From NCBI GenBank assembly GCA_023135165.1, contig JAGLTS010000005.1:2745-66744 (forward strand): a stretch of 64,000 bases of DNA, given 5' to 3'. The notes beneath the pieces are model-generated. The model made no database searches, had not been told where the DNA came from, and saw only the letters and a program-made list of their open reading frames with translations. The position numbers and the translations under genes are program-made. This document shows positions 12,989 through 41,459 of the stretch, one piece after another (positions within the stretch are counted from its first letter, which is position 1; the number at the start of each line of letters is the position of its first letter). The DNA is from Phycisphaerales bacterium (GTDB taxonomy: Bacteria; Planctomycetota; Phycisphaerae; Phycisphaerales; JAGLTS01).

Positions 12989-13570
12989 TCACGTACCGCT
13001 GAAGAGGCCGGCGAAGCCCATGAAGGCGAGCGACAGGATGCCGGCGATGATCATGTTCAATGCGGTGCCCTTCACCATTGCGGGCACGTTCGACAGCTCG
13101 ACTTCCTCGCGTAGACCCGCCATGAGGACGAGCGCGAGCGTGAACCCGCCGCCCGCACCAACCGCGAAGACCAGCCCCTCGATCACCGAGTAGTCCGCCT
13201 TGGTCTGCGAAATCGCCAGGTACAGGATCGCGCAGTTGGTCGTGATGAGCGGCAGGAAGATGCCCAGCGCGCGGAAGAGCGCCGGGCTGAGCTTTTTGAT
13301 GACCATCTCGACGAACTGCACGGTGCTGGCGATGACGACGATGAAGCTGATGAGGCGCAGGTACGGCGCATATGGCAGGATGAAAGCGTTGAGGAACGAG
13401 ACGCACAACGACGTAATGACCATGACGAAGATCGTCGCCAGGCCGAGGCGGAATGCGGTCTTGAGCCTGCCGGACACGCCGAAGAACGGGCACAGGCCGA
13501 GGAAATAGTACAGCGTGAAGTTGTTGACGAGCATCGCGCTGATGAAGATCCAGACGAGGTTGCTGTTCAT
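12989..13570 (-). CDS. rnfA: Rnf electron transport complex subunit A
   Basis: 193 aa. LVNNFTLYYFLGLCPFFGVS, LGIFLPLITTNCAIL and LSLAFMGFAGL closely follow the RnfA/RsxA pattern. 4-nt overlap with rnfE. Confidence 0.9.
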   Translation of the reverse strand: MNSNLVWIFISAMLVNNFTLYYFLGLCPFFGVSGRLKTAFRLGLATIFVMVITSLCVSFLNAFILPYAPYLRLISFIVVIASTVQFVEMVIKKLSPALFRALGIFLPLITTNCAILYLAISQTKADYSVIEGLVFAVGAGGGFTLALVLMAGLREEVELSNVPAMVKGTALNMIIAGILSLAFMGFAGLFSGT

Positions 13571-14217
13571 GATGCAGCCTCCTCTGAAACGCGGGTTCGC
13601 CTTCTGATCTTTCGTTCACGGAGGAAGCCGAAGAAGAGCAGGATCACGCCGAGCATGATGAACCCACCGGGCGGAAGCACCATGATGACCCACGGCTCGA
13701 AGTGTTCGCCGAAGAGCAAGTGCCCAAAGAGCGAACCCGAGCCGAGGATCTCGCGCGTCGCGCCAAGGCACAGCAGCGCAAACGCAAAGCCCGCCGCCAT
13801 ACCGATCGCATCGGCGACGGCGAGGCGCACGCTGTTCCTGCTCGCAAATGCTTCCTGCCGGCCGAGTATCAGACAGTTCACGACGATCAGCGCGATGAAC
13901 GCACCGAGTTCCTTATGCACGCTCGGCACGGCCGCCTTGAGCGTGAAGTCCGCGACGGTCACGAACGTGGCGATGATGATGATGTACGTGCTGATGCGAA
14001 CCTGCTTGGGAATAAACGACCTTAGCAGCGACACGAGAAAGCTGGACCCGATGAGCACGAACGCCGTCGCCGCGCCCATCGCCACAGCGTTGATCGCGCT
14101 GTTCGTCACGGCAAGCATCGGACACATGCCGAGCACCTGGACGAAGACAGGATTCTCCTTCCAAATGCCCTTGGCGAACTCGCGGTAGAGCCGACCCGGA
14201 TCGGGAGGTGTGTTCAT
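13567..14217 (-). CDS. rnfE: Rnf complex subunit E
   Basis: 216 aa. NPVFVQVLGMCPMLAVTNSAINAVAMG is typical of RnfE/RsxE. 4-nt overlaps on both sides. Confidence 0.9.
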   Translation of the reverse strand: MNTPPDPGRLYREFAKGIWKENPVFVQVLGMCPMLAVTNSAINAVAMGAATAFVLIGSSFLVSLLRSFIPKQVRISTYIIIIATFVTVADFTLKAAVPSVHKELGAFIALIVVNCLILGRQEAFASRNSVRLAVADAIGMAAGFAFALLCLGATREILGSGSLFGHLLFGEHFEPWVIMVLPPGGFIMLGVILLFFGFLRERKIRRRTRVSEEAAS

Positions 14218-14927
14218 CGCTCACCTCCCTGCTGCTCTTGCTCGGGCGCATCCGGTTCAGCCGGCGGCGCGGGGGGTTCTTCACCCGGGGGGGGGAGATC
14301 AGGTAGCCACGCCCCGGTCACCGTGTTGATGATCTTCACAACCGCCAGCGATGAAATCGTCGCACCGGTGATCGCATCAACCTCGTTGTCCGCATCCCGG
14401 CCGTCCTTAACAACGACGATCGGCGGCTCGACGCTGAGCGCCTCGAAGTTCGCCTGGAATGCTGCGTCCTTATAGATCTTGTCGCCCAGCCCGGGCGTCT
14501 CCCGGCTCTCGAGGATCTCCAGGCCGATGACGCACCGGCGAACCGGGTCGTAGCCGTAGAGCAGGCGAATGATGTCCTGGAAGCCCGATCCCGCACCTTC
14601 GATGGCATAGCCGAGAAAATCGCCCGCATCGTCATACGCGCCGTACACCACGGGGTCGGTGACGGGTTCATCACCAGCGACGGGAACGAGCAGGCCGTCA
14701 CGCAGCGCGAGCTTGCGCATTCGCGTCGAGCCGGGCACGACCTTGAACACGGCGGCTTCGAGCGCCCGTGCGTTGTTGGCGTCGATGATCGGTTTGGTGA
14801 TCTGATACGCGCCGGCAATCGCAAAGCCAGACAGCAGCCCCGCGATGCCGAGCGTCAACACGAGGCGCAGGCTGCTCGGCTGGCTGGGTTGCTGCCCTGC
14901 TGAGATGGTGAGCTGGACCTCGGTCAT
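14214..14927 (-). CDS. rnfG: Rnf complex subunit G (FMN-binding)
   Basis: 237 aa. N-terminal TM helix and the FMN-attachment-type motif VDAITGATISS. Pro/Glu-rich C-terminal tail. Confidence 0.85.
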   Translation of the reverse strand: MTEVQLTISAGQQPSQPSSLRLVLTLGIAGLLSGFAIAGAYQITKPIIDANNARALEAAVFKVVPGSTRMRKLALRDGLLVPVAGDEPVTDPVVYGAYDDAGDFLGYAIEGAGSGFQDIIRLLYGYDPVRRCVIGLEILESRETPGLGDKIYKDAAFQANFEALSVEPPIVVVKDGRDADNEVDAITGATISSLAVVKIINTVTGAWLPDLPPPGEEPPAPPAEPDAPEQEQQGGER

Positions 14928-15961
14928 GCCACAGCCCTCCCCCGGCCGAAGGCGCGCGGCTGCGCGATGCGCTCGATCAGCGGCGTCGCGGCGTTCATCA
15001 GGAGGATCGCGTACATCACGCCTTCAGGCAGCCCGCCCCAGATTCGGATGAGCACGACAAGCAGCCCGATGCCCAGGCCGAAGATCCAAGCACCGCGCGG
15101 CGTGATCGGCGATGTCACCGGGTCGGTCGCCATGTACACCGCGCCGAAGAGCAGCCCGCCCGAGCAGAGCATCAGCCAGGGCGACGGGTACTCCGTGCGA
15201 TCGAAGAGCCAGACGATCGTCGAGAAGACGGCGACGGTGCCGAGGATCGAAACAGGGATGCGCCAGTCGAACGTTCGACGGATGGCGAGAATGACGCCGC
15301 AGATGATGATGACGATCGCGCACGTCTCGCCGAGCGAGCCCGCGGTGTTGCCCAGCAGCAGTTGCTCGACGCCGGTCGGGATGTTCTGGAACTTCATGAG
15401 TCCAAGCGGCGTCGCGGCGCTGATCGCATCGACAGCGTCGGCAGCGGGAGCGGGCGCCTGCATGAAGGGCAGCGCGAAGTTGCTGGGACGGATCGTGAGC
15501 AGCTCGGTAATCGCGCCCTGCTGCGTCCACGTCGTGATGGCGGTGGGAAAGGCCGCCTGGAGGAAGGCCCGACCGACGAGCGCCGGGTTGAAGATGTTTT
15601 GGCCGAGTCCGCCGAAGACGAGTTTGCCAAGCCCGACGCCGACCGCGCCGCCGAGGAACGCCATCCACAACGCGATGCCCGGCGGCAGACACAAGCCCAG
15701 GAGCACGCCGGTGAGAATCGTGCTGCCATCTGTGAGCGATCCGCCGCGCCGCCGATCCGGGCCGAACACCCATTCCGTGAGCGCCGCGCCCGCCGTCGCC
15801 GCGACGATGACGAGGATCGCGCTCAGCCCGAAGAAGTACACCGCGGCGAGCACGACCGGCACAAGCGCGATGAGCACATCCACCATGAGGCGAGGCGTTG
15901 TGATACCGCGGCGAAGAAACGGCGCCGATTGCAGAAGCAGTCGTGGATCGCGCCGCGTCAT
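14924..15961 (-). CDS. rnfD: Rnf complex subunit D
   Basis: 345 aa from ATG at 15961, which forms an ATGA overlap with the rnfC stop (15958-15960). Polytopic membrane protein with the RnfD/NqrB-like pattern. The track start at 16069 is an over-extension. Confidence 0.88.
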   Translation of the reverse strand: MTRRDPRLLLQSAPFLRRGITTPRLMVDVLIALVPVVLAAVYFFGLSAILVIVAATAGAALTEWVFGPDRRRGGSLTDGSTILTGVLLGLCLPPGIALWMAFLGGAVGVGLGKLVFGGLGQNIFNPALVGRAFLQAAFPTAITTWTQQGAITELLTIRPSNFALPFMQAPAPAADAVDAISAATPLGLMKFQNIPTGVEQLLLGNTAGSLGETCAIVIIICGVILAIRRTFDWRIPVSILGTVAVFSTIVWLFDRTEYPSPWLMLCSGGLLFGAVYMATDPVTSPITPRGAWIFGLGIGLLVVLIRIWGGLPEGVMYAILLMNAATPLIERIAQPRAFGRGRAVA

Positions 15962-17292
15962 GATTCTTTGGCCTTTCGCGCTCGCATCATCCCTTTCGCA
16001 GCACGGATCAAATGCACGATCGGCACGCCGGATGGGCATGTGTACGTGCACGCGCCACACTCGACGCAATCCATGATGTGCGCCTTCTCAAGCTCATCGT
16101 ACCGACCCGCACTCGCGAGCCTGGCCAAGCGCGAGGGATTCAGGAAGTTGCCGCATGCTTCAAGGCACTGCCCGCAACGCACGCAGGCGTACTCCGCTGT
16201 GTGGTTGATGACATCCTCGGTGAACGCGAGCAGCCCACTTGTTCCCTTGAGCACGGGCACATCGAGCGATGCGAGCGACGTACCCATCATCGGCCCGCCC
16301 ATCACGACCTGCCGCGCCTGCGTGTTCAGCCCGCACCGGCGAAGCACATCGCGCACCGGCGTGCCGATGGGGACGATCAGGTTGGCCGGCCGATCAACGC
16401 CGGGCCCGGCGACGGTCAGCGCCCGCTCGATGACGGGGATGCCCCGGTCGAAGTAGTCCGCCAGCGCCGCCATCGTGCCGACGTTGTTGACGACGATGTT
16501 CAGGTCCAGAGGCAGTTTGCCTGCGGGCACTTCCTCGCCCCAGACCGCCTTGATGAGCATCTTCTCCGCACCCTGGGGGTACTTCACCTTGAGGGGCACG
16601 ATGTCGATGCTGCCCCGATCACCGACAGCCCGCCGAAGGGCCTCGATCGACTCGGGTTTGTTCAGTTCGACGCCGATTGTGGATGAGTCCGCGCCGAGCG
16701 TTTCAGCGAGGATCTCGACGCCGCGGATGATCGCATCCGGCTGTTCGACCATGAGGCGGTGGTCGCAGGTGAGGTAAGGCTCGCATTCGCAGCCGTTGAC
16801 GAGCAGTCGTTCGCAGCGATTACCCTCGGGCAGCTTGTACTTCACGTGCGCCGGAAACGCCGCCCCGCCCATGCCGACGAGGCCGGCCTGTTGAACATGC
16901 GTGATGAACTCATCGAGCGTGAGGGATCGCCAGTCCACCGGCGACGCGGCCGACATGCGTTGTGTTGAAAACGCATCGGCTTGGATTTCGATGGACTGGG
17001 CCATCTGTCCGTTCGGGTGCCTGCGCATCGCGATGGCGGCGACGGTTCCGTCGACGGGGCTGTGCAGCGCCATGGAGACGAAGCCGCCCGGCTCCGCGAT
17101 CAGTTGTCCTCGCGTAACGGTTTCGCCGACGGCGACGACGGACTTGCACGGCGCGCCGAGATGTTGGCTGAGCGGCAGGATGTATCTGTCCACGAAGCCC
17201 ATGCGCTCAAGCGCGAGATCCTCGGTGCCTTCTTTGTGCTCTCGCGGGTGCACGCCGTGCCGGAATGTTCTGCCGAGCACGCCCGCGGTCAT
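15958..17292 (-). CDS. rnfC: Rnf complex subunit C (NADH-binding, 2x[4Fe-4S])
   Basis: 444 aa. GMGGAAFPAHVKY and CVRCGQCLEACGNFL ... CVECGACTYTCPSGVPI. 4-nt overlap with the upstream giant ORF. Confidence 0.9.
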   Translation of the reverse strand: MTAGVLGRTFRHGVHPREHKEGTEDLALERMGFVDRYILPLSQHLGAPCKSVVAVGETVTRGQLIAEPGGFVSMALHSPVDGTVAAIAMRRHPNGQMAQSIEIQADAFSTQRMSAASPVDWRSLTLDEFITHVQQAGLVGMGGAAFPAHVKYKLPEGNRCERLLVNGCECEPYLTCDHRLMVEQPDAIIRGVEILAETLGADSSTIGVELNKPESIEALRRAVGDRGSIDIVPLKVKYPQGAEKMLIKAVWGEEVPAGKLPLDLNIVVNNVGTMAALADYFDRGIPVIERALTVAGPGVDRPANLIVPIGTPVRDVLRRCGLNTQARQVVMGGPMMGTSLASLDVPVLKGTSGLLAFTEDVINHTAEYACVRCGQCLEACGNFLNPSRLARLASAGRYDELEKAHIMDCVECGACTYTCPSGVPIVHLIRAAKGMMRARKAKES

Positions 17293-20200
17293 TCGGCGCC
17301 ACCTTCGCCCTGCTGCGCGGCCACCGGCGCGTAACCGGCCAGCGCCATGAGGCCGCTCGTCACGCGTTGGGCGGCCTGGGCGTCGTACTGCGCACGAAGC
17401 TCGGCGAGTTTCGTCTCGTACTCGCGTTTGAGCGTGGTGATCTCATCCTCGTGCGCCTGCGCCACATCGCGCTGAGCTTGTTCTCGCACGGCTTCCGTGA
17501 ACGGAGTGACGACGCCCGCCAGTTCCTGAAGCGTGCGCCAGAACTCAAGACGCCGTTGCACATCGCGCGCAAGTGTCGGGGCGACGCGCAGCGACATCCG
17601 TTCACCCTCGCGATCGACCGTGATGACCGGCATCGTTGCGACGCGATCATGCACGCTGAGCGAGAGGTAGTCGGTGATCGGCATCGGGGCTGGGTCGTTT
17701 GTCGTCAGCGGACGAAGGTGATCCGAGAAACGCGCTTCGGTGACAGCCCAATGCGCGGGCGTGATCGCAGCGCCGGCGTCGGTGTGCCAGCGTGATGTGA
17801 CATCCGGGTTGGCGGAGAGATCCAGCCGAGCGCCGAACACGCCGTCAGCCGATGGATCGTAGGTGAATAACGGGAACGCGCGCGATGCGACGGCAAGCTC
17901 CGCTTGGGCGATCAAGCGCTCAGGGGCGAAACCGTGGCGCTCCGGGCTGGGCGCATGGATGTGAACGAGCGCCGGACCGGTGAAGGCAAGCGCCCCGAGA
18001 ACGCTCTCGGCGAAATGCGCGCCGTCGGCAGGCGACACCTGCGTCACGAACGCGGTGCGTGAGAGCAACGCGAGCAGGGCGATGTCGAACCTTTCATCGG
18101 ATGCGTATGCGCCGAGCGATTCGACGCGGAGCGCATCATCCGCGCCGCCGCCGATGTCGCTGAGCAGAACGATCTTGATCGGCAGGTCGGTGCTGAGCAG
18201 CCCGATGAGTTGTGACAGGTTCTGACCGGCCAGCGACCGGCTGTCGCCGATGATGAGCATGGGCGGGCAGAGGCTTCGCTCCTCAAACGTGAGGTCGGCA
18301 TATCGCAGGCGCTTGAGGCTGTCAGCCATGCGCGCGGCGCTGTGCGGATCATCCAGTTCAACCTCAGCCCATCGCATGAGTCGCACGCCCGCGATCGCCT
18401 GTTCGAGTTGACCTTCGATCAGACCTCGCGCCAGTTCGCCCGCATCGCCGCCTGCGTCGATGACCACCGGGCTGAAGAACGGGTTGTGAGGGAAGACGCC
18501 CGCCCACGCAGCGACCGAGCCTGAGGCGATTGTGATGCCCGTTCGCGCCCGCCCAGCGCCGGTCGGACCTTGCGTAAGTTGCCAATGCAGGTCGGCCAGG
18601 CCTCGCGCTACTTCCACCAGGCGCGCCAGGCGATCACCATCCACGCGACCGGCTGTGACCGCATCGCCGACGGCGCCGGAGAGCGCCGCGAGATCCACTT
18701 CGCGTTTACCGAGTGATTCAAGCCCACCCGCCAAGGCGTCCAGATCATGCTCGGGAAGCGCGCCCGCAAGCACATCGTGGATGCGATCAGCAAGCTGTTT
18801 CTGCAGCGCTTCGATCCGCTGAAGATGCTCTTGCAGGCGAGGTTGAAGGTGATACTCGGCAGCAGCCATCACATGACGAAGGGCCAGGCGTGCGCCCGAG
18901 CAGGCTTCCGAGCCGTCGCCCGACGCCATCGCGAGCAGGCAGTGGCGCGAGAGCAGCATGGCGGCGAGCGGGCCGACATCGCGGTGCGTGCGAACGCGCT
19001 CGATCGTCGTGCCCGGCGTGTCGGGCAGGCGTTGCCAAAGACTCCACAGACGGCGCTGCATGTGCACAAGCTCGGGCGTCTTCGTGGCAGCACGCAGGCC
19101 TCGCCCCTTGCACGCATCAATGGCAGCGGTCGCGTTCTTGCACGCATCGGGATTGACGAGTAGCGAGAACAGTTCGCCCGTGCCGCGCGAGGCTCGCTCC
19201 GGCTCATCGAAGAAGATCGGCGTCCTCACCACGGGCAACTCGCCGACTTCATTGACGACCGCATCAAGCGCCGGCGCCAGCGTCGCCTTGCGAGGATCAA
19301 CACCGTCCTCTTTGTCCATCAGCGAATCGAATGCAGCGCGGAAAAGCTCGCCGGCTGTGGTCGGCGCGTCGGGGTACGCAGCGAGGATCCTGTTCACACG
19401 CCCAGCGATCTTGCCCGCGATGCTCCCAAGCACATCGACGGGCTTGCCCCTCTCGGACGCCATCGTGATGCCTGCATCAAGAAGCGCGCGGGCGGAGATG
19501 ACGAGCGGCGCGATCGAGCCGTCCGGGCAACTCGTCCATGACCGGCCATCGCCATCGCACGACTGCGGATCGAAGACCGGCAGCATCGCACTCGCATCGC
19601 TCACATCGCGGAACGTCGAGGAAAGGGGCGGAACCGCGCCGGCGGCAAGACACGGGTCGGCTGTGAGCTGGTCCACCTTGCCATCGCGGTAGAGCACGCC
19701 GACCTGATCCCAGAACCGGGGCAGCGATGCGACCGGCATGTCCGAATCGGTCAACTCGCGGACGGCGGGCGGTGCGGATGCCTCGCGCAGCCGGTCGTCA
19801 GCGGGCGGCAAAGGCATGTCGCCGGCTTCCACGCGCGTGATGGACTCGAAGGCAAGGTCGATCACATCGAGACGCCGATCACGCTCGGATTGTGACAGTT
19901 CCGCGAGCGCTTCTTCACGATTCGAGCGGATCTTGGCGGTGGTGATGCTTCCGGGCGCACGCATCGCGCCGTTGACCAGTGAGACAAGCCCTCCGAGCAG
20001 CGCTTCGTTGATATGCGACGCATCGCAATCGGCTGAGATCTGAACGATGTGGATGGCGACTCGACCGTTTGCAGCGTCGTCGCGGAGTTTCGCGGGCAGC
20101 GTGGGCCAAAGCTCATCCGAAGCCTTGTCGCTGACAAGAAGGACCGCGCCGCCATCCACCAGGCGCTGCGTTACCTCCATGCGCGGGTGAATGGCATCGG

Positions 20201-21914
20201 CTGCGATCACCGCGATGTTCACGGGCACGTCATCACCCGGATCAAGCAGCGGTGAGTCGGCGCAGGTGAACGTATCCGCGCACGGGTCGCCGAAACGTTG
20301 CCAAGTCAGGGCGGGACGACTGCGGAGATGACAACCGAGCACGCCCGCGATCATCGACGCGGCCTCGCCTGCGAATGTCTCATGCTCGCCGCCGGCTGCA
20401 CGATGGACTGCGACGGTGACAGCACCGTTCGGCCGAACATCCGGCGGCTGCTCGTCGCTGCGAAGGCCCAGCTCGCCGAGCCTGCCATCAGCGCGGCGCA
20501 GCGCGTCGATCACAGCCTGCTGTTTCGGATAGTCGCTGTGGTCGCGGATAAAGTTCAGGCCGAGGTGGATGCGGTCACGGTCCGGGTTCTTCAGCGCGTC
20601 GACGAGGGCGATGAGGTCAGCGGCGCGAAGCGGCAAGCCACCCATGCCGAAGGGGACGCTCACAAGCCTTGTGCGGGTTTCCCGCGCATGCAACGCGGCG
20701 CGCAGCTCGCGCATGAGCGGCGCATCACCGGCGAGCGGCGCGTCAAGACGTTCCAGAACCGCAACGACGCCGGTGCGACTCAACCGCTCGGCGATGATCG
20801 CACAGGGGAAGGGTCGCAGGCGCCTGACGCCGAGTACGCCCACTTGGGCACTGCCCTGCTCGCGCAACGAGTCGGCGACGGCGATCGCGGTTTCGACAGC
20901 CGATCCTTGCGCAACCAGAATGGTCTGTGCATCATCGAGCGCGTGTTCGAGAACCGGGCCGTAGCGCCGACCGGTCTGCTGGGCGAACTCATCGAATGCC
21001 TCGGACAAGAAGCGCTGAACGTGATCGGCGAAGTACACGCGCTGACTCGCCGCGCCAAGCGCCCAGGCCTCCGGGCCTTGCAACGGGCCGAGCATCATCG
21101 GGCGCTGCAGGTCATACATCCGAGGCACACGACGGCGCGTGTCGCCCAGAAGCATTCGCTGTGCATCGGTCGGCGGCTCGATGCGATCGGACGGCTGACC
21201 GAGGAATGACCGCAACAGCGTTTCGTCAGGCAACAGGACATCCTGCGCAGCGGTCGCCGTCTGCTCGCCATCCATTGCGACGATGCCGGGCACGAGGGCG
21301 CGTTCTGCGACGCGACGTGCGATGAGCGCGAAGTCCACCGCTTCCTGCACGCTCGTTGCGAAGAGTTGGAAGCAGCCGAAGTCCGCGACGGCGTGGTACG
21401 CCTCATGGCCGGTGCCGATCGCCTGTGCATGGCCGGGTTGCGCGCGGCAGGCCAGGTGCACGACGAGCGGGATGTGCGATCCCGCGGCTCGCCCGAGCAG
21501 GTCGCTGCCGGTCGTGATGTCGGGACCGGAGAGAAAGCACGCGGTGCGCCGGCCGGACATCGCCATGCCGAGCGCCGTCGCCAGTGCGGCGCGGGGGTCA
21601 TCGGCGCTCGCGCTGGTGAGCGGCCTGCCAAACTCGTTGACATCACGTCTCGCCTGCTGCTTGGCCCACGCCCGAGCGCCGACGGCTGCGGGGTACGTCG
21701 CGCCGAGGGCAGCGGATTCGCTGATCCGCGCTTCGGTGAAGGCAACCGCTGAAAGACCATCCAATACGACAGCCCGGCCGGCAGCGGCGAACTGGTCATC
21801 CGGCAGGCCTTGCAGGAGCCGACGAAGCAGTCGCAGTGATGAAGCGGCGAAACTAGTCAAGGTTCGCTCCCGTGACAGAGGCGGATGCGCGCGGACTGAA
21901 TTGGCTGAACTCAA
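17289..21914 (-). CDS. full-length pyruvate:ferredoxin oxidoreductase (PFOR/NifJ) homologue with degenerate cofactor sites plus C-terminal coiled coil
   Basis: Track ORF is 1541 aa and starts at a TTG overlapping rnfB by 62 nt. An alternative TTG at 21860 (about 1523 aa) overlaps only the rnfB stop. Collinear with PFOR domains I, II, III, V and VI (details in findings). The Fe-S Cys ligands and the GDG..NN ThDP motif are substituted. Confidence 0.8.
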   Translation of the reverse strand: MSSANSVRAHPPLSRERTLTSFAASSLRLLRRLLQGLPDDQFAAAGRAVVLDGLSAVAFTEARISESAALGATYPAAVGARAWAKQQARRDVNEFGRPLTSASADDPRAALATALGMAMSGRRTACFLSGPDITTGSDLLGRAAGSHIPLVVHLACRAQPGHAQAIGTGHEAYHAVADFGCFQLFATSVQEAVDFALIARRVAERALVPGIVAMDGEQTATAAQDVLLPDETLLRSFLGQPSDRIEPPTDAQRMLLGDTRRRVPRMYDLQRPMMLGPLQGPEAWALGAASQRVYFADHVQRFLSEAFDEFAQQTGRRYGPVLEHALDDAQTILVAQGSAVETAIAVADSLREQGSAQVGVLGVRRLRPFPCAIIAERLSRTGVVAVLERLDAPLAGDAPLMRELRAALHARETRTRLVSVPFGMGGLPLRAADLIALVDALKNPDRDRIHLGLNFIRDHSDYPKQQAVIDALRRADGRLGELGLRSDEQPPDVRPNGAVTVAVHRAAGGEHETFAGEAASMIAGVLGCHLRSRPALTWQRFGDPCADTFTCADSPLLDPGDDVPVNIAVIAADAIHPRMEVTQRLVDGGAVLLVSDKASDELWPTLPAKLRDDAANGRVAIHIVQISADCDASHINEALLGGLVSLVNGAMRAPGSITTAKIRSNREEALAELSQSERDRRLDVIDLAFESITRVEAGDMPLPPADDRLREASAPPAVRELTDSDMPVASLPRFWDQVGVLYRDGKVDQLTADPCLAAGAVPPLSSTFRDVSDASAMLPVFDPQSCDGDGRSWTSCPDGSIAPLVISARALLDAGITMASERGKPVDVLGSIAGKIAGRVNRILAAYPDAPTTAGELFRAAFDSLMDKEDGVDPRKATLAPALDAVVNEVGELPVVRTPIFFDEPERASRGTGELFSLLVNPDACKNATAAIDACKGRGLRAATKTPELVHMQRRLWSLWQRLPDTPGTTIERVRTHRDVGPLAAMLLSRHCLLAMASGDGSEACSGARLALRHVMAAAEYHLQPRLQEHLQRIEALQKQLADRIHDVLAGALPEHDLDALAGGLESLGKREVDLAALSGAVGDAVTAGRVDGDRLARLVEVARGLADLHWQLTQGPTGAGRARTGITIASGSVAAWAGVFPHNPFFSPVVIDAGGDAGELARGLIEGQLEQAIAGVRLMRWAEVELDDPHSAARMADSLKRLRYADLTFEERSLCPPMLIIGDSRSLAGQNLSQLIGLLSTDLPIKIVLLSDIGGGADDALRVESLGAYASDERFDIALLALLSRTAFVTQVSPADGAHFAESVLGALAFTGPALVHIHAPSPERHGFAPERLIAQAELAVASRAFPLFTYDPSADGVFGARLDLSANPDVTSRWHTDAGAAITPAHWAVTEARFSDHLRPLTTNDPAPMPITDYLSLSVHDRVATMPVITVDREGERMSLRVAPTLARDVQRRLEFWRTLQELAGVVTPFTEAVREQAQRDVAQAHEDEITTLKREYETKLAELRAQYDAQAAQRVTSGLMALAGYAPVAAQQGEGGAE

Positions 21915-22704
21915 CCCACTGGATCGCGCCGGTCGGACAACGATACGTCGCTTCCGGCGCAGCTGGCCCGCCCGCTGCGTAGTCCACGACAGGCAGGTTG
22001 TCCTTCATCTGAATCAACCCCGGCGCCGCATCTTGAGCACATCGGCTGCATCCGTCACACGCGACGCGGCAGATCGCACGGGCCTGCTCACCTTCGAGCG
22101 GGATCTTGCACTGCACGATCAGGCAATGCGAGATCGGCAAGCATTCGAAGAGGTCGCGCGGACAGGCGTCAACACAGTCCCCGCATGCGGTGCATTTGTC
22201 AGGTTCAACGACGGGCAGCCTCTCATCGTTCATGTGGATGGCGTCGAACGTGCACGCGACCATGCAATCGTCGAGGCCGAGGCAGCCCCACGCGCATCCC
22301 TTGCCGCCGCCTCCAATCATGTGCGCCGCCAGACATGTCTTGAAGCCCTCGTACTCGGCGATCTGCCGGGCCTGGCTCAAACCGCCCGCACAATGCAGAC
22401 GCGCCACGCGTTTCTCCTGCTTGCCTGCATCCACGCCGAGGAACGCCGCGATGTATTCGATCCCCTCCGGACTGGAGACGGTGCACGCGCTCGGCGCGTG
22501 CGCGCCGTCGATGACCGTCTCAGCGAAGGCGCGACAGCCCGCCTCGCCACACGCGCCGCAGTTCGAGCCGGGCAACATCTCTTCGATGATGTCGATCCGT
22601 GGATCCTCCTCGACCCGCAGGAAACGGTTCGCCACCGCCAGACCGATCCCGAAGAATACCCCCAGCCCGGTCATGATCGCTGTGGCCAGGAGCAGGGTGA
22701 GCAC
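21853..22704 (-). CDS. rnfB: Rnf complex subunit B (polyferredoxin)
   Basis: 283 aa. N-terminal TM helix, CGACGEAGCRAFAE cluster motif, then several CxxCxxCxxxCP-type motifs (CTACGDCVDACP and others). Confidence 0.88.
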   Translation of the reverse strand: MLTLLLATAIMTGLGVFFGIGLAVANRFLRVEEDPRIDIIEEMLPGSNCGACGEAGCRAFAETVIDGAHAPSACTVSSPEGIEYIAAFLGVDAGKQEKRVARLHCAGGLSQARQIAEYEGFKTCLAAHMIGGGGKGCAWGCLGLDDCMVACTFDAIHMNDERLPVVEPDKCTACGDCVDACPRDLFECLPISHCLIVQCKIPLEGEQARAICRVACDGCSRCAQDAAPGLIQMKDNLPVVDYAAGGPAAPEATYRCPTGAIQWVEFSQFSPRASASVTGANLD

Positions 22705-22748: not shown

Positions 22749-25367
22749 TCAGTTAAACGGCTTGGCTCGGGCGATAAGCTCGTCCAGCTTCGGCTCATCG
22801 GGGTTGAGCGGCTTGCCTGGATGGATACATCGGCTGGGACATTTCTCCGCTGCCCGGACGATCTGGTCGAACGTGCCCGCCCGTGCGTCGCCGATGACCG
22901 CCTGCTTGCTCGCGTTGTAGACGAAGACCTGCGGGTTGATATCCATGCAGTCGTTGCAGGTCGTGCAGAGGATGCTGGTGATCCACGGCTCGTCCGGGCC
23001 GTCATCGTCATCCGTTTCGGATTCGGCAGGCGCTTGAGCCTGCTCAGCGTCGTCGGCCTGCGCCTGGGCAGCATCAGGAGAAGCCGGGGCGATCCCCGGG
23101 GCGCCGTACGCCCCGGCCAGCGGCGCGAGCTGATTCACATCGACGCCCAGCAGCGACTGCGCCAGACGCTCCATGACCTCACTCGCCGCTTCGCTTCGCA
23201 CCGTTTCGATCTCGGCTGCGTGCGCCTCCTCAAGCTGTTGGCGCTGAGCTTCCGCCTCCGCCGTGAGGCGTTCCCTCTCCTGCTCAACGGCGGCGCGAAC
23301 ATACTCGCTACGCACACCCGCCAGTTCCTGAAGCGTGCGCCAGTACCTGAGGCGGTCGCGACAGGCAAACGCTAGGCGGCGTGTAATGACGAGGCGGTGG
23401 AGTTGCCCATCACCATCGATCGCCCAGACGTACGGAACTCGCGACAGCGCTTCGTCGGCCGGCAGCGCGAGGTACGCATCAACTGTGATGAACTCGTCGC
23501 CGCAACATGCCGGAGGGATGACGCGGTAGTGATCTCGATAGCGAGGTTCGGCAAGACCGAAGTCAGCGAAGGTGAAGGCAACCGTCATGACCTGCTCTTC
23601 ACCGGCCGGGGTGCGGCAGGGGAGGTCGTAGACGGGCCAGTCCTCGTCCGCTTGGGGGTTGCCTGAGAAATCCAGCCGGCGTGCCCAGGAGGTGCCCGCT
23701 TCGGGGTTGTAGTGGAAGAACGGATGCGCCCGGCCTTCGATGGCGGCTCCGCCGTGGAGGTACGTGCCGAGCGGCGGGTGCTCACCATCCATGAGCAGTC
23801 CAGATGCGGCGACATGCAACGATGTGCGCGTCGCGTCAAGGCTTCGCAGGAAGCCGTCGAGCAGGTGTTCCGGGCGAGCAGCGGAGGATTGATTCACCAG
23901 GGCTTCGCGATGGCTGACGCCCATGTAACCAAGCTCGAAACGGTAGCCCAGCAGCGGATCACCTTCCGATGGGAGTCCGACGTTCATCGCGGCACGAACC
24001 GACACGATCACGTCAATCGGCCGGGCGGAAAGGAGGACTCTTGACAGGCAGAGCATGCCTGAGCCTCCCATGTGCTCGACCGATTCAGTCGCCAGGATGG
24101 GCGGCAGGCTGAGCAGTTCCTCACGCGAGAAGGCTTCCCAGTCGAACGCTTCGAGCAGCGGGTCGTGACGAAGCGGCTCGTAGGCGTTTGCGAGTTCCAG
24201 CTCCGCGACGCGCATCGCGCCGAAGAGCCTCGCATAGTGCTCCGCCACCCGATCAAACACCTCCGCCGCCGCGGCGCAGGCCGCCTCGTCGCCTGCTTGC
24301 CTCCACTCAACGTCGTCCGCAGAACTCTCTGCCGGGGTCCGTTCATGGTGAACCACGATGAGCAGGCTCTGATCCTCGCGCGCCAGGAACTTCTCGAAAA
24401 GCCCGATGCCGTTCACGACGCGCCGGCGACGGTCCGGGTCCATCGGCATGACGCCGCGCGATGGGCCGAGCACGTGCGCCAGCGCCGCGGGATCGACGTG
24501 CGATGCGCCGGCTGTCCCGACCATTCGCAGCATGACACCGACCTGGCGCCCCTCGGGGGTCTTGCCCAACTCGATGAGGAGCAAATCGTGGAGCTTGGTG
24601 CGAAGGTCACTCACCTTGTCGCGCAGCGCAGCACGGCGTGGGATCGCGCGGTGCCGGGCAGCGTGCAGGAACAGGTGCAGGGGTGCGTGCATGCCAAGGG
24701 CGAGTAGCCGCCCTCCCCGGGGCATTGCATCCTGGAGCCTCGCTAGGTCATCACGCAGTTGCCCGGCGCCTTCCTCGCTGAGGGCCAGCTCATCGACGGT
24801 GCTTTGCCCCGCCTGATCGATCGCCTCCGAGGCGCTGACGGGCGCATCGACGCTCCTGATCGCTTCCCGCACGTGTCTTTCGAGCCGGTGGAGGTTGTCC
24901 TTGAGGATGCGGGCATCCTCCGATTCCGGCGCCATGCGATCGACGACTTCACTGAGCAAATCGGACAGGGGAATGAACAGCCGATCGTCCTCCACCGAAT
25001 CCAGCGGCCGAAGAAAAAGCGGGTACTCATGCCGAACAGCACCGGCATCGCGAAAAGGATGCAGCAGAGCCGGGATGCAATCATCACCTGGCGTCCGGAG
25101 CGCACCGGCTTCACCCGGATCACCTCGATGGAACCGCCGAATGGCGTGGAGGCATTCGGCGACCTGCTTTTCCGAGACATCCGCGGGAGGCGTGGGCAGG
25201 ACGGGCAGGACGCTCCGCACGCCGGCTCGCTCGGCACGATCTCGCATCGTGTCGGCCCAGTCCGAGAGCGTGTCATCAGGCCCCTCAGCCGGCGGGATCA
25301 TCTCGCCCTGGACGAGTTCGCCGGCTGCATCGCTGGCCGTCGCCGTGCTTTCGTCAGTGTTCTGCAT
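22749..25367 (-). CDS. large hypothetical protein: unknown N-terminal half + degenerate PFOR-domain-VI-like core + coiled coil + C-terminal single-cluster ferredoxin domain
   Basis: 872 aa. ATG at 25367 follows AGGAA, 9 nt after the korB stop. HPFFHYNPEAGTSWARRLDFSGNPQADEDWP resembles the PFOR C-terminal region. YWRTLQELAGV is shared with the 1541-aa ORF. The C-terminus ILCTTCNDCMDINPQVF ... AAEKCPSRCIHPG is ferredoxin-like. Confidence 0.75.
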   Translation of the reverse strand: MQNTDESTATASDAAGELVQGEMIPPAEGPDDTLSDWADTMRDRAERAGVRSVLPVLPTPPADVSEKQVAECLHAIRRFHRGDPGEAGALRTPGDDCIPALLHPFRDAGAVRHEYPLFLRPLDSVEDDRLFIPLSDLLSEVVDRMAPESEDARILKDNLHRLERHVREAIRSVDAPVSASEAIDQAGQSTVDELALSEEGAGQLRDDLARLQDAMPRGGRLLALGMHAPLHLFLHAARHRAIPRRAALRDKVSDLRTKLHDLLLIELGKTPEGRQVGVMLRMVGTAGASHVDPAALAHVLGPSRGVMPMDPDRRRRVVNGIGLFEKFLAREDQSLLIVVHHERTPAESSADDVEWRQAGDEAACAAAAEVFDRVAEHYARLFGAMRVAELELANAYEPLRHDPLLEAFDWEAFSREELLSLPPILATESVEHMGGSGMLCLSRVLLSARPIDVIVSVRAAMNVGLPSEGDPLLGYRFELGYMGVSHREALVNQSSAARPEHLLDGFLRSLDATRTSLHVAASGLLMDGEHPPLGTYLHGGAAIEGRAHPFFHYNPEAGTSWARRLDFSGNPQADEDWPVYDLPCRTPAGEEQVMTVAFTFADFGLAEPRYRDHYRVIPPACCGDEFITVDAYLALPADEALSRVPYVWAIDGDGQLHRLVITRRLAFACRDRLRYWRTLQELAGVRSEYVRAAVEQERERLTAEAEAQRQQLEEAHAAEIETVRSEAASEVMERLAQSLLGVDVNQLAPLAGAYGAPGIAPASPDAAQAQADDAEQAQAPAESETDDDDGPDEPWITSILCTTCNDCMDINPQVFVYNASKQAVIGDARAGTFDQIVRAAEKCPSRCIHPGKPLNPDEPKLDELIARAKPFN

Positions 25368-25376: not shown

Positions 25377-26330
25377 TCAGATCGCGAAACGATCGAGTTC
25401 CCGATTGAGCCCGGCGATTCTCTCCTCGGTCGTCATCTCCATCCCGATTGTCGTGACCTGTTCGTACCTGGGCCGACTCTCATTCTGGAAGAAGATGCCG
25501 ATGGGGAGCAAATCCTCCCGGCCGGCGAGGGCGACGGCCTCGTTGTGATTCAGCGGGTCGTGCGCCATCTGATGCTCGTACATCCCCGCCACCGCAGGAT
25601 CCAGTTGGATGCCGTTCTCGTGATTGAGCAGAAGGATCGTCGACGGGTCCTGCTGCATCGCCTCGTAGATCTTCGCGGTGTACTGCGGACAACGCTGGTG
25701 GATGTGGACGAAGCTGAATCCCTTGTGCTTGAACGCGGCATCGAGCGTCGCATGCAGGTGAACGGGGTTCCAATCGACGGTCTTGGCGACAAATGAAACA
25801 TTGGTGAAGCCGAGCGTGGCGAGCGTGGGGTTGAGCGGGGGCAACCACGCGCCGAAGGGGTGGGTGTTGGTCCGCTGACCGGGCCTGCTCGTCGGAGAGG
25901 TTTGCGCCTTGGTCAGGCCGTAGATGTTGTTGTCGAACAGCATCACGGTCATGTCCATGTTGTAGCGTACGGCGTGCAGCCAGTGCCCGGCGCCGATGGA
26001 GCAGCAGTCGCCGTCTCCGGTGGCGACCCACACATGCAGATCCGGGCGTCGCGCCTTGACGCCACAGGCCACGGGAAGCGCCCTCCCGTGCAGGCCGTGA
26101 AACCCGTAGGTCTTCATGTAGTGCGGGAATCGACTCGAACAGCCGATGCCGGAGACGATGATTGTCTTCTCAGGCAGAAGTTGCTCGTCGCGGCAGATCC
26201 GCTGCACGGCGGCGAGGACGGCATGATCCCCACAACCGGGGCACCACCGCGCGATCGCGCCCTCGTAGTCCTCAAGCGTGAAGTAACGGGGGAGAACATC
26301 CAACGACCAGTCTTTTTTTAGCCCGAACAT
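25377..26330 (-). CDS. korB: 2-oxoacid (2-oxoglutarate):ferredoxin oxidoreductase beta subunit
   Basis: 317 aa. WCPGCGDH, GIGCSSRF, and an intact ThDP motif GDGDCCSIGAGHWLHAVRYNMDMTVMLFDNNIYGLT. Confidence 0.88.
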   Translation of the reverse strand: MFGLKKDWSLDVLPRYFTLEDYEGAIARWCPGCGDHAVLAAVQRICRDEQLLPEKTIIVSGIGCSSRFPHYMKTYGFHGLHGRALPVACGVKARRPDLHVWVATGDGDCCSIGAGHWLHAVRYNMDMTVMLFDNNIYGLTKAQTSPTSRPGQRTNTHPFGAWLPPLNPTLATLGFTNVSFVAKTVDWNPVHLHATLDAAFKHKGFSFVHIHQRCPQYTAKIYEAMQQDPSTILLLNHENGIQLDPAVAGMYEHQMAHDPLNHNEAVALAGREDLLPIGIFFQNESRPRYEQVTTIGMEMTTEERIAGLNRELDRFAI

Positions 26331-28270
26331 GATTCGCTCCCCATCGCAGCTTCGACCGGCTGCGGCTCGTTCCCAGTGAGGCCCATACCGTGCAGCCGAT
26401 CCATGATGACTTCATGGATCTGCCCCGGCCGCAAGGGTAGGCCCTGGCAGATGGACCAGTAGTCAATGTCGCGCCTCGTCCTGCCTCGCAACATCAGGGC
26501 GAGATGCGGCGGCCGACCGGGCTGCGTCTCCATCATCAGCCCGTGCTGCGGGTCGCTGTAGTTCAGCTCAATCGTCATCACCTTGTCGAACCGCATGAAG
26601 ATGTCGCGCAGGCCCGGTTCGAGAGGCCAAAGGAAGCGTATGTGCAGCGAAGAGACGCGATACCCGTCCGCACGCGCCCGATCGACCGCCTCCTCGATTG
26701 AGCCGAGCGTCGAGCCCCAGCCGACGACGATCAGATCGCCTTCGTCGTCCCCGTGGATCTTCGGCGGCTTGAGCGTGGCCCGCAGTGCGGCGAGCTTGCG
26801 GCTGCGCATCTCCAGGCCCTTGATGTTCGATGCGGGGTCGTAGGCGACTTTGCTCTGACCGGTGTGCGCCAGGCCCGTCAGGACGTACTCGCCGCCGCGC
26901 TGACCTGGGATCGGCCGGGGCGAAAGACCCGTCTCTTCATCCCAGTCGTACGGCGGGACGCCCTGCTTCCACGGCGACTGATCGACCGGCGGCGCGAGCC
27001 ATTCCTCGCACGGCTCGGGCCTGGGAATCGGCTGAACGCCCGTCGCCAACCCGGCGTCGGTCAGCACGATGACCGGCGTGCGGAAGGCCTCGGCAATCGT
27101 CCGTGCGGTGATGATCAGATGGAAGCACTCCTCGATCGTGGCGGCGGCGATGATCGGTTTGGGCGAATCCCCCGGCGAGCCGTACATCGCTGCCATGAGG
27201 TCGCCCTGCTCGGGCTTGGTGGGCAGGCCGGTCGAAGGGCCGCCACGCTGCACATCCACGATGACCAACGGAATCTCTCCCATGACTGCCAGACCGATGA
27301 ACTCCATCTTCAGCGCCAACCCCGGGCCGGAAGTGATCGTGCATGCCGTCTTCCCCGCGTAGGAGCAGCCGATCGCGAATCCGACAGCGGCGATCTCATC
27401 CTCCGCCTGGTGGACGAACCCGCCCACGCTCTGAATGGATGCCGCCAAGTAGTGCGAAGCGCTCGTGGCGGGCGTGATGGGGTACATCGACACCATCTCG
27501 ATGCCCGCAGCCATGACGCCCAGGCCGACCGCCTGGTTCCCGTTCATCACGAGCAGTTCGTGATCCACATCCATGCAAGGAACGTTGAAGCAGTACGTGA
27601 GACGCTCACGCGCGAACTCGACGCCCGCCTGCATGAGCTTCTGATTCAACGAAATGACCTGCTCGCCCTTCTTGCTGAAGATCGCAGCGATCTCCCCCAG
27701 CGTCATCTCAACATCGCGCTGATAAATCCAGCAGAGCATGCCGAGCACGAACATGTTTTTGCCGAGTTTCGGGTTCTCGGTGTGCGCCAGACATGCCTCT
27801 TCCATCGCCAGTTCATGGACGACGAAACCGCGGTCATGGAAATCCGCGACGCCATCCGCGTACGCCTGACGTATCTGTGGCGATGGATCGTTCGCCCACT
27901 TGTTCTCAAGCAAGACGACCGTGCCTTCGTGGTAGGCGCCCTGCCCGATTCGGCCGTAGAGCACCTGCTCGTTGAAGGCGACGACAAGGTCGGCTGCATC
28001 ACCCATGTTGGTGATTTCGTGATCGCCGAGTCGGATGCGGATGCCGCTGGCCCCGTCGCGGGATCGGGAAGGCGGCTTGATTTCAGCGGGAATGATCTCA
28101 ACGGTCCACGCGCCGTTTCCCATCTTGGCGCTGACGGTGCCGAACGTGACACCGCACTTCTGCGCGCCCTCGCCGGAGTCGCTGACAATCTCGACGATGT
28201 GTTCGTGAACCATCGTCGAGTGTTCATCGCGCGGTGCGCCGGGGTGCGAGTTACCGTCTTGTTTGGCCAT
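26318..28270 (-). CDS. korA: 2-oxoacid (2-oxoglutarate):ferredoxin oxidoreductase alpha subunit (gamma-alpha fusion type)
   Basis: About 650 aa from ATG at 28270 (GGAGAG 7 nt upstream; the track start at 28285 is a TTG). SDSGEGAQKCG gamma-type N-terminus and the pyrimidine-binding region YPITPATSASHYL. Confidence 0.88.
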   Translation of the reverse strand: MAKQDGNSHPGAPRDEHSTMVHEHIVEIVSDSGEGAQKCGVTFGTVSAKMGNGAWTVEIIPAEIKPPSRSRDGASGIRIRLGDHEITNMGDAADLVVAFNEQVLYGRIGQGAYHEGTVVLLENKWANDPSPQIRQAYADGVADFHDRGFVVHELAMEEACLAHTENPKLGKNMFVLGMLCWIYQRDVEMTLGEIAAIFSKKGEQVISLNQKLMQAGVEFARERLTYCFNVPCMDVDHELLVMNGNQAVGLGVMAAGIEMVSMYPITPATSASHYLAASIQSVGGFVHQAEDEIAAVGFAIGCSYAGKTACTITSGPGLALKMEFIGLAVMGEIPLVIVDVQRGGPSTGLPTKPEQGDLMAAMYGSPGDSPKPIIAAATIEECFHLIITARTIAEAFRTPVIVLTDAGLATGVQPIPRPEPCEEWLAPPVDQSPWKQGVPPYDWDEETGLSPRPIPGQRGGEYVLTGLAHTGQSKVAYDPASNIKGLEMRSRKLAALRATLKPPKIHGDDEGDLIVVGWGSTLGSIEEAVDRARADGYRVSSLHIRFLWPLEPGLRDIFMRFDKVMTIELNYSDPQHGLMMETQPGRPPHLALMLRGRTRRDIDYWSICQGLPLRPGQIHEVIMDRLHGMGLTGNEPQPVEAAMGSESCSG

Positions 28271-28631
28271 TGGAACGCTCTCCAAGTGAGAAGAGACACG
28301 GGTCGATTCGCCTTGCGCTGGTTTCAGAACCGCATACCAGCCGCTGGATGAGAATCGGCCAATAACTCAGTTGTCGTGAGCTTGTCCGGGCAGGCGCCTC
28401 GACAAAGGAGCGGAGCTTGAACAGACACATCACGCCGCCTCGATCGCCCGGTTTCGCGGCGCCTCGGAGCGAGCGACAAACGAGCGTTGTACTTCAACCG
28501 CAGCACGCCCGCCAGTGGTTAGACGTAAGGGAAGACACACAAATGTGAAGAGCGCCAATCGGCGGACGACGCATACGGCACAGCCGCATCCTGAATGGAA
28601 CGGCTGACGTGCCTGTGTTATCAGCCCTTGG

Positions 28632-38146: not shown

Positions 38147-38683
38147 ATGACGAAGCTCGCACCCGGCAGGAAAGCCCCGCCGTTTGAGTTGAAAGATCAG
38201 GATGGCAACGCGGTGTCGCTCGAATCACTGCTCGCATCAGGCAAGGGTGCAGCCGTGCTCTGGCTGTGCAACCACTGCCCATACGTCGTCGCATACATGG
38301 GCAGGCTCGTCGCGCTGGATGCGGAGTTCCCGGACATCCGGTTCGTCGGCATCAACTCGAATGATCCGCGGACATACCCCGAAGATGCCCCCGACAAGAT
38401 GCCCGCCTTCGCCCGGGAACACGGCGCAGAGTTCCCGTACCTCTTCGATGAGACGCAAGATGTCGCGCGGGCGTATGGCGTCGAACGCACGCCGGAGATC
38501 TTCCTGCTCGGGCCCGACGGCGTGTGCGTCTACGAAGGCGGTGTCGATGACAACTGGAACGATCCGAACCACGTGACCGATCGGCCTCTCCGCGATGCCT
38601 TGGCGGCGCTCTCGGCAGGCAAGCCGATCGAGCGCCCTCAGACGTTCGCCACCGGCTGCTCGATCAAGTGGAAGAACGCCTGA
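38147..38683 (+). CDS. thioredoxin-fold (redoxin/AhpC-TSA-like) protein
   Basis: 178 aa. [17 protein letters not shown], followed by the CxxC motif in [10 protein letters not shown]. Confidence 0.75.
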
Positions 38684-38771
38684 CCCACCCCCACGACACC
38701 ACGACGTTGAGCGCGGCGAAATCCGCTCCGGCGGACCCCCACTTCCAACACACGCGAGGAGATCGCTCACG

Positions 38772-41459
<2,688 letters not shown>

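Follow-up and report, generated by a model that had tools for sequence, protein, structure and literature searches.

Homodimeric pyruvate:ferredoxin oxidoreductases (PFOR/NifJ), including the enzymes of Desulfovibrio africanus (1B0P) and Moorella thermoacetica (6CIN) and the proteins covered by the model TIGR02176, are built from the collinear domains I-II-III-V-VI-VII. In the genome of the Solemya velum symbiont, rnfB2 and rnfC2 are reported to flank genes annotated as 'PFOR', from which pyruvate was inferred as an electron donor (Dmytrenko et al. 2014; PMC4287430), and expression of a 'PFOR-like' gene of Endoriftia falls together with that of the dimeric korAB under sulfide limitation (Mitchell et al. 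2024; PMC11636981). In tubeworm symbionts and Thioflavicoccus, Hdr-Flx genes occur with korABCD (Rubin-Blum et al. 2019). Here, we analyzed a gene, referred to as PFL, which encodes a PFOR-like protein and lies between rnfB and rnfC in a Phycisphaerales bacterium (Planctomycetota; assembly GCA_023135165.1). The window, i.e., the whole stretch of DNA that was analyzed, comprises 64,000 nucleotides (contig JAGLTS010000005.1, positions 2,745 to 66,744); coordinates below are window positions unless a locus is named.

PFL has the same collinear domains and the same fold as PFOR/NifJ, but is devoid of the glutamate that activates thiamine diphosphate (ThDP), of the Mg loop and of the proximal cluster and, in the lineage of the window, of the ferredoxin-domain clusters as well; it also carries two additional helical insertions of about 100 aa and a predicted C-terminal coiled coil. 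We consider it highly probable that PFL no longer works as a PFOR but is maintained as a protein, and we classify it as a pseudoenzyme of the 2-oxoacid:ferredoxin oxidoreductase (OFOR) superfamily, recruited as an Rnf-operon subunit. In the best reading of the sequence comparisons, PFL would be a catalytically dead descendant of PFOR-L, a PFOR-type protein normally encoded inside rnf operons.

By their position, the genes of the Solemya velum symbiont and of Endoriftia appear to be gammaproteobacterial members of the PFL family (the tubeworm-symbiont loci in our set are L031, L033, L034, and L070). In the corresponding papers, the gene was taken as a functional or possible PFOR, and the ligand losses, the half-length paralogue X and the PFOR-L series described below were not reported. 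Gammaproteobacterial PFL proteins keep two ferredoxin-domain clusters, unlike the window protein, which has neither. As in the Hdr-Flx/korABCD arrangement, genes of a 2-oxoglutarate:ferredoxin oxidoreductase (OGOR) are interleaved with those of a complex for electron transfer, suggesting that electrons are delivered directly; the partner here, however, is Rnf, the OGOR is a two-subunit KorAB, and the proteins thought to link them are PFOR-derived pseudoenzymes. Our literature search, whose coverage was incomplete, so that absence is no proof, found no description of cofactor loss in PFL, of X, or of PFOR-L, and a 2025 review of Rnf and Nqr makes no mention of a PFOR-type subunit. Public names of the PFL family are 'hypothetical protein', '4Fe-4S binding protein', and 'pyruvate-ferredoxin/flavodoxin oxidoreductase'.

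The open reading frame given in a preliminary description of this DNA, made by eye (17289..21914, minus strand), was present and uninterrupted, but the gene start it implied, at 21914, had to be corrected. The true start is most likely a TTG at 21860, which is preceded by GGGAG and yields a protein of 1523 aa, as in the database protein P0001 from a Phycisphaerales metagenome-assembled genome (100% identical), with an N-terminus (MTSF..LRLLRRL) that agrees with the family consensus. PFL therefore probably spans 17289..21860 (minus strand; 1523 aa and a stop codon). Residue numbers refer to this protein, and adding 18 converts them to the 1541-codon frame of the preliminary description. The TTG overlaps the rnfB stop codon (TAG, 21853-21855) by 8 nt, and an ATGA at 17289-17292 is common to the PFL stop and the rnfC start, so that the coupling previously proposed at both junctions was found. 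The suggested co-production with Rnf subunits fits these 8-nt and 4-nt overlaps and the conserved synteny. Residues 1-20 (21801-21860) correspond to a conserved basic amphipathic N-terminal helix (consensus MxSFxxxxLRLxRRL) ahead of domain I; predicted with low confidence, this helix could be a docking or membrane-contact peptide.

In Pfam searches, PFL matched POR_N and PFOR_II only (E = 1e-12 for the latter), with no match to TPP_enzyme_C or POR (PF01558). The score with the NCBIfam PFOR model TIGR02176 was 115.1 bits, compared to a cutoff of 911.35, with residues 50-453 as the only part matched. A PFL family profile built from 38 members matched the M. thermoacetica and D. africanus PFORs in three collinear segments, corresponding to domains I-II (E of about 1e-37), III-V, and the end of VI; profile segment 565-831 was paired with residues 480-729 of the M. 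thermoacetica enzyme. The protein was modelled with AlphaFold as two separate halves, residues 1-760 (pLDDT 89, pTM 0.91) and residues 741-1523 (pLDDT 87, pTM 0.85). The best Foldseek matches of the N-terminal half in the PDB were PFORs (E = 4e-44; TMq 0.71-0.75 over about 700-750 columns), with a TMq of 0.75 over 750 columns for 1b0p. A PFOR was likewise the best PDB match of the C-terminal half (E = 7e-15), followed by OFOR beta subunits. The architecture I-II-III-V-VI(-VII) was thus recovered both in the profile segments to 6cin and 1b0p and in the fold matches of both halves, in agreement with the collinearity with Desulfovibrio-type PFOR noted in the preliminary description, and the models indicate that PFL retains the whole PFOR fold.

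From the N- to the C-terminus (all on the minus strand), PFL comprises the PYR-type domain I (residues ~30-255; 21096..21773), delimited by the POR_N match, HMMER alignment to 1b0p and 7plm, and the fold match; domain II (residues ~256-450; 20511..21095), delimited by PFOR_II, the profile, and the fold match; and a domain III-like region (residues ~470-700; 19761..20453), whose fold is kept according to the profile and Foldseek although the PF01558 match, present in the intact relative PFOR-L, is absent. The former ferredoxin domain V (residues ~759-930; 19071..19586) is split into two halves by a helical insertion of about 100 aa (residues 790-890), as indicated by secondary structure and a pLDDT above 90. 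It is followed by a degenerate PP-type domain VI (residues ~936-1340; 17841..19055), recognized by alignments, ligand table, and fold match, in which the model places a second helical insertion of about 108 aa (residues 989-1096; 18573-18896). The remnants of this domain are CSGA (987-990), SGS (1113-1115), GDS (1205-1207), the deleted Mg loop, and PSPERHGF (1303-1310). The protein ends in a domain VII-like tail (17292..17840), which carries the motif WRTLQELAG common to the family (17514-17540) and, at the C-terminus, a helix of about 55 residues (1453-1507; 17340-17504) that likely forms a coiled coil. Of the additions noted earlier, the C-terminal helix and a helical insertion were recovered, but there are two insertions of about 100 aa and not one.

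Ligand states were tabulated over 120 homologues, using as reference the intact PFOR-L aligned residue by residue with PFL. The two proteins aligned in a single end-to-end BLASTP high-scoring segment pair (31% identity; residues 28-1505 of PFL versus 17-1530 of PFOR-L), and HMMER alignments to solved PFORs and OFOR beta subunits agreed with this register wherever they reached. Sequences of PDB PFORs alone covered domains I-II, part of III-V, and the end of VI, leaving out the proximal-cluster region. For that region, an insertion-trimmed profile gave a sub-threshold match (score -2.9; register ATGCSS versus APGSVA), and hhalign of KorB against the PFL family gave a weak one (E = 0.02) in the same register; it was the alignment with intact PFOR-L that settled it.

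At the ThDP site, the activating Glu (E64 of D. africanus), contained in PEGEH in PFOR-L, is replaced by Pro89 (ADDPR) in the window protein; among the 120 homologues, the position is mostly occupied by Pro, Ala, or Gly, Glu and Asp never being among the residues listed. The Mg motif VGGDG has become IIGDS, with GDS in place of GDG, and the loop that reads DTQVYSNTGGQ in PFOR-L (DTxVYSNTGGQ) is deleted. The substrate Thr (D. africanus T31; ITPS in PFOR-L) corresponds to Tyr56 (TYPA), and the substrate-carboxylate ligand R114 is kept as Arg139, which is invariant in the clade. At the four positions that bind the proximal [4Fe-4S] cluster (C812, C815, C840, and C1071 in D. africanus), the window protein has C987, A990, S1115, and S1305, and the family G/A, A/E, S/T/A, and S, respectively. 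The corresponding stretches of PFOR-L and PFL are SCMGCGEK and EACSGARL (Cys 1 and 2), STGCSSVWG and ASGSVAAWA (Cys 3), and TPCQAEHG and APSPERHG (Cys 4), so that TPC of the intact relative is paired with PSP. In the ferredoxin domain, motif 1 reads CTGCGQCWTQCP in PFOR-L and CDGDGRSWTSCP in PFL (19524-19559, minus strand), i.e., C-DG-D-GR-S-WTS-CP (CxxDxxSxxxC), and motif 2 reads CKGCNLCVEVCP and CKNATAAIDACK (19107-19142, minus strand), i.e., C-KN-A-TA-A-IDA-CK (CxxAxxAxxxC). Only C1, C4, C5, and C8 are left. With two Cys per former site, no [4Fe-4S] cluster is possible, and both clusters of domain V are missing from the window protein.

The substitutions listed in the preliminary description were verified by this tabulation, and their register had not been mistaken by eye: the retention of only the outer Cys in both ferredoxin motifs held against the end-to-end intact relative and the 120 homologues, CxGC was paired with CSGA, and TGCSS with SGSVA. 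The reported replacement of GDG...NN was borne out for the change of GGDG and DTQVYSNTGGQ to IGDS and a deleted loop, but the Asp of GDG is retained, it and Arg139 being the sole ligand-type residues left in place. Clear homology to an enzyme family and the loss of residues essential for catalysis are thus combined in PFL, and the sequence strongly indicates that it is non-catalytic.

The losses differ in their distribution. The ThDP-activating Glu, the Mg loop, and the full set of proximal-cluster Cys were absent across the 120 homologues, which points to an ancient, family-wide loss that includes the sulfur-oxidizing Gammaproteobacteria and the Planctomycetota. All eight ferredoxin-domain Cys were kept in the 80 homologues (80/80) outside the Phycisphaerae-type clade, mostly from gammaproteobacterial sulfur oxidizers with a few Planctomycetota, whereas a complete motif was found in none of the 40 proteins of that clade, the window protein included. 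Of the 40 proteins of this Cys-less clade, 36-37 still have C1, C4, and C5, and 22 have C8 (PFL residues 768, 778, 907, and 917). At the GDG site (18241-18249; PFL 1205-1207), the clade that keeps the ferredoxin clusters mostly has G-N/S-D. What remains of the ancestral enzyme differs between the two clades.

In a full-length neighbour-joining tree, the Cys-less clade was recovered in 100% of bootstrap replicates, and a Cys-bearing planctomycete protein (P0042) was its sister in 100% as well. When only the C-terminal half was used, with X as the root, the Cys-less clade was monophyletic (74%) and nested among Cys-bearing sequences (73%); bootstrap trees were computed with Poisson distances, Kimura distances being undefined. 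Given the support for the clade and its Cys-bearing sister, the loss of the ferredoxin-domain clusters is most simply explained as one derived event in the Phycisphaerae lineage. The PFL of another locus (L089, 14278-18699; 1473 aa), for which no precomputed Pfam family is on record, has both ferredoxin-domain Cys motifs; the extent of degeneration therefore differs between lineages.

The gene does not show the features of decay. The gene was intact over its full length in each of the 36 full-length members of the clade to which PFL belongs, as well as in 80 homologues that are more distant. A search with the C-terminal half of PFL alone, covering 1.84 billion cluster representatives (50% identity clusters), retrieved 602 of them at E ≤ 1e-30. 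Mean identity within the Cys-less clade was 63% and 52% for the two halves of the former domain V, compared to 51% for the whole protein. For the Phycisphaerae genes, pN ranged from 0.29 to 0.38 and pS from 0.57 to 0.76; dN was well below dS, with ratios of 0.07-0.42 that are qualitative only since synonymous sites were saturated. Strongly conserved new motifs (GPRGA, PSPERHGF, and WRTLQELAG..TPFT) were found at the lost sites. Intact reading frames, even identity across domains, pN below pS, and synteny together show that this pseudoenzyme is under purifying selection. The view that the gene is repurposed rather than decaying therefore stood, being supported by full-length orthologues, even conservation, dN below dS, and the rnf position across phyla; the selection and conservation analysis that the preliminary description had proposed as a check revealed purifying selection, within the limits of saturated dS, and intact orthologues with no relaxation.

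An intact counterpart of PFL was recognized from a 1669-aa gene in an Eisenbacteria locus (L046:4057-9066, plus strand), our entry point to the PFOR-L family. PFOR-L proteins (about 1650-1720 aa) have the two helical insertions, the C-terminal coiled coil, and a linker-attached ferredoxin I-like domain, and occur in Gemmatimonadota, Acidobacteriota, Myxococcota, Eisenbacteria, and others (e.g., P0312 and P0265), annotated publicly only as '2-oxoacid:acceptor oxidoreductase family protein'. Both ferredoxin motifs, CxGC, TGCSS, GGDG, and NTGGQ were present in 120 out of the 120 best matches, and the C-terminal ferredoxin in 117 of them. PFOR-L is thus apparently a large, uncharacterized family of intact PFORs. 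Its likeness to PFL extends to the end-to-end alignment, with both insertions and the coiled coil, and to the same slot between rnfB and rnfC in three loci (L085:10001-15046, L088:8001-13040, and L090:8001-13094). Unlike PFL, PFOR-L keeps every cofactor ligand and the C-terminal ferredoxin, which PFL lacks and X possesses. No intact member was found among the best 150 representatives of the PFL search.

Overall, three types of gene clusters were observed. Type A, korA-korB-miniX(~335 aa)-rnfB-intact PFOR-L-rnfCDGEA-apbE, was found in Gemmatimonadota (L085) and in L088 and L090; type B, korA-korB-X'(~810 aa, no ferredoxin)-intact PFOR-L-rnfB-dead PFL-rnfC..., in Eisenbacteria (L046), in L089, and in part in L087; and type C, korA-korB-X(with ferredoxin)-rnfB-dead PFL-rnfCDGEA, in the window, Gammaproteobacteria, and Planctomycetota, among them the complete Phycisphaerales genome CP070772.1. 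The slot between rnfB and rnfC therefore holds a catalytically competent PFOR-type protein in some phyla and a dead one in others, and PFL stands at the degenerate end of a series in which the intact protein fills the same slot in other phyla. The mini-X proteins (334-340 aa), encoded between korB and rnfB (L085:8135-9148, L088:6118-7140, and L090:6144-7148), had no match in a Pfam search; mini-X appears to be related to X but is much shorter (hhalign probability 76%, E = 2e-5, for L085 only).

X itself (22749..25367, minus strand; 872 aa) is a half-length paralogue of PFL and PFOR-L. Its residues ~94-745 are homologous to PFL 739-1523 (BLASTP E = 6e-26; hhalign probability 100%, E = 2e-45, 625 columns), and the shared part includes the helical insert of the ferredoxin domain, the degenerate domain VI, domain VII, WRTLQELAG, and the long helix; domains I-III are lacking. 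Beyond this part, X continues with an acidic, non-conserved linker and a C-terminal single-[4Fe-4S] ferredoxin (nt ~22818-22985, minus strand; Cys 801, 804, 807, and 847), which resembles D. africanus ferredoxin I (E = 1e-6) and whose Cys are conserved in both clades. In sequence, X resembles the C-terminus of PFOR-L (34% identity, ferredoxin included; E = 6e-85) more than it resembles PFL.

Synteny was determined over the best 80 species-level loci from a genome scan with 393 matching candidate stretches. Immediately upstream of PFL, rnfB was found in 65 out of 71 testable loci, and rnfC was immediately downstream in 51 out of 70; X (54/61) and korB (45/54) also lay upstream. A ten-gene module, korA-korB-X-rnfB-PFL-rnfCDGEA, is thus kept across phyla. 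The position between rnfB and rnfC had been correctly assigned, but it is not an insertion peculiar to the window genome. Encoded inside the rnf operon, with overlaps to core genes and a conserved order, PFL is a candidate accessory subunit of Rnf.

In the window, all genes of the module are on the minus strand. The rnfB gene (21853..22704) encodes a polyferredoxin-type protein of 283 aa with 20 invariant Cys. KorB (25377..26330) is an intact OFOR beta subunit with CPGCGD, GIGCSS, GDGD, and RCP, i.e., the three Cys of its N-terminal region, the GDGD motif, and the fourth Cys are retained, and korA (26318..28285; start codon uncertain) encodes an OFOR alpha subunit with a fused domain III (POR, POR_N, and PFOR_II). 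The rnfCDGEA block (12989..17292) consists of rnfC (15958-17292), rnfD (14924-16069; start uncertain), rnfG (14214-14927), rnfE (13567-14217), and rnfA (12989-13570). Within the module of the Phycisphaerae lineage, PFL's own clusters are the only ones lost, the other Fe-S sites being kept.

Genes for the succinyl-CoA step occur beside or inside the module in some loci. In tubeworm-symbiont loci, sucC-sucD follow PFL instead of rnfCDGEA (L033:14702-16870), and korA is preceded by a NuoF-like gene and a fragment of a flavoprotein of the fumarate-reductase type (L033:21-2808). In some Sedimenticola-type loci, sucCD lies between PFL and rnfC; sucC-sucD are found there in L016 (14714-17188), and a gap of similar size is present in L018, L068, and L075. 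The 64-kb window also contains the genes of isocitrate dehydrogenase (icd; 2898-4184, minus strand), aconitase (acn; 38595-41459, plus strand), and malate dehydrogenase (mdh; 43893-44885, minus strand). Through sucCD and these three genes, the module is tied to the succinyl-CoA/2-oxoglutarate step of the tricarboxylic acid cycle. Directly beyond rnfA, on the opposite strand, is a membrane H+-pyrophosphatase gene (9857-12604, plus strand). Other redox genes of the window encode a 918-aa fused molybdoenzyme of the xanthine-dehydrogenase/aldehyde-oxidase type, with 2Fe-2S and molybdenum cofactor-binding domains (45049-47805, minus strand), and a 746-aa protein whose sole matches are 4Fe-4S dicluster domains (55936-58176, plus strand).

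On balance, we favour, by a modest degree of confidence, a role of PFL as a dead, PFOR-derived structural subunit, a scaffold or relay that would join KorAB to Rnf. In this scheme, PFL would act as a structural docking subunit, and PFL and X would represent two degenerate halves of an ancestral PFOR homodimer after duplication. The two would pair via their homologous domain VI/VII modules and coiled-coil helices, as in the PFOR homodimer, X having kept domains VI/VII and the coiled coil, the parts expected to serve in pairing, along with a mobile ferredoxin. The pair would dock KorAB, a two-subunit OFOR and the only intact 2-oxoacid enzyme of the module, to RnfB/RnfC. Since KorAB has no ferredoxin domain, electrons would pass between the KorB cluster and the RnfB polyferredoxin via the linker-attached ferredoxin of X; in most other lineages, the two remaining clusters of PFL would also lie in the electron path. 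The 2-oxoglutarate/succinyl-CoA reaction could thereby be coupled to NAD(H) and an ion gradient without free ferredoxin. The parallel expression change of the Endoriftia 'PFOR-like' gene and dimeric korAB agrees with this scheme. More tentatively, and with well under even confidence, the PFL and X scaffold on KorAB and Rnf may constitute a membrane-bound, ion-gradient-coupled NADH:2-oxoglutarate oxidoreductase/synthase supercomplex that needs no soluble ferredoxin, the PFOR-L clusters being its ancestral Rnf-docked version.

Several observations weigh against such a scaffold. PFL was found without korAB or X nearby in Thiosymbion, Thiomargarita, Thiotrichaceae, and Thiorhodococcus, and without rnf genes nearby in a few lineages; in Thiorhodococcus mannitoliphagus DSM 18266 (L050), the arrangement rnfB-PFL is present. 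In tubeworm symbionts, a NuoF-like gene stands in place of rnfCDGEA beside the module, so the set of partners is not fixed. We infer the pairing of PFL with X and their docking to KorAB and Rnf from paralogy and synteny. Finally, the Asp of GDG was present in 39 out of the 40 proteins of the Phycisphaerae clade, and the full GDG in 24; together with the invariant Arg139, this Asp may mark a residual ligand-binding site in PFL.

Such a site would suit a non-catalytic PFL that acts as a regulatory or sensing pseudoenzyme, with a remnant pocket for substrate, CoA, or diphosphate gating Rnf or Kor, or else as an assembly or stability factor, which we regard as possible but unlikely. The two kept residues and the new conserved motifs at the lost sites are compatible with this explanation, as is the loss of all PFL clusters in the Phycisphaerae clade, where the other Fe-S sites of the module were kept; PFL itself can therefore carry no electrons in that lineage. 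However, the eight ferredoxin-domain Cys of all 80 other homologues point to an electron relay in most lineages, the family-wide absence of the activating Glu and of the Mg loop makes a ThDP-type pocket unlikely, and no recognizable regulatory domain was found in PFL.

PFL could also be the inactive partner of a PFOR-L encoded elsewhere, forming a heterodimer with one active site in which pyruvate oxidation is retained. Consistent with this, the two proteins align end to end, and an intact PFOR-L gene stands beside dead PFL in L046 and L089 and a few genes away in L087. We nevertheless judge it improbable, because neither the window nor the other gammaproteobacterial and planctomycete loci contain a PFOR-L gene at a distance of up to 10 kb from PFL, none of the named best PFOR-L matches came from Planctomycetota or Gammaproteobacteria, and the slot beside korB in dead-only clusters is held by X, which lacks domains I-III.

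That PFL is a working 2-oxoacid:ferredoxin oxidoreductase with unconventional cofactor binding is very improbable. Glyoxylate carboligase of E. coli is a ThDP enzyme that works without the activating Glu, and a GDG or GDS motif is present in the clade. The JGI name of homologues, 'pyruvate-ferredoxin/flavodoxin oxidoreductase', and the interpretation of the gene as a PFOR by Dmytrenko et al. (2014; PMC4287430) also favour this explanation. Against it, the change of Glu to Pro is accompanied by deletion of the Mg-ligand loop and replacement of proximal Cys at A990, S1115, and S1305, the match to the PFOR model reaches 115 bits versus a cutoff of 911, Pfam TPP_enzyme_C and POR matches are lacking, and the window lineage has no Fe-S cluster in PFL to take electrons away.

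A decaying pseudogene or an assembly artefact, suggested by the many lost catalytic residues and by the origin of the sequence from a metagenome-assembled genome, was ruled out for practical purposes by 1523 uninterrupted codons, hundreds of full-length orthologues in several phyla, even conservation across domains, conserved synteny, and overlapping gene junctions.

The PFL family is routinely annotated as PFOR and has been counted as a pyruvate synthase or oxidase when the metabolism of chemosynthetic symbionts and other sulfur oxidizers was reconstructed. If PFL is dead, carbon-flow models of those organisms hold one PFOR too many. The module bears on the question of how ferredoxin-dependent 2-oxoacid enzymes gain or discard low-potential electrons in bacteria that live under microaerobic or aerobic conditions: the presence in one operon of an OFOR, Rnf, and two putative PFOR-derived adaptors, one of them with a linker-attached ferredoxin, suggests a hard-wired coupling of Kor to Rnf. 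The series from clusters with intact PFOR-L only, through those with intact and dead proteins, to those with the dead protein only would offer a natural example of the passage from an enzyme homodimer to a pseudoenzyme scaffold.

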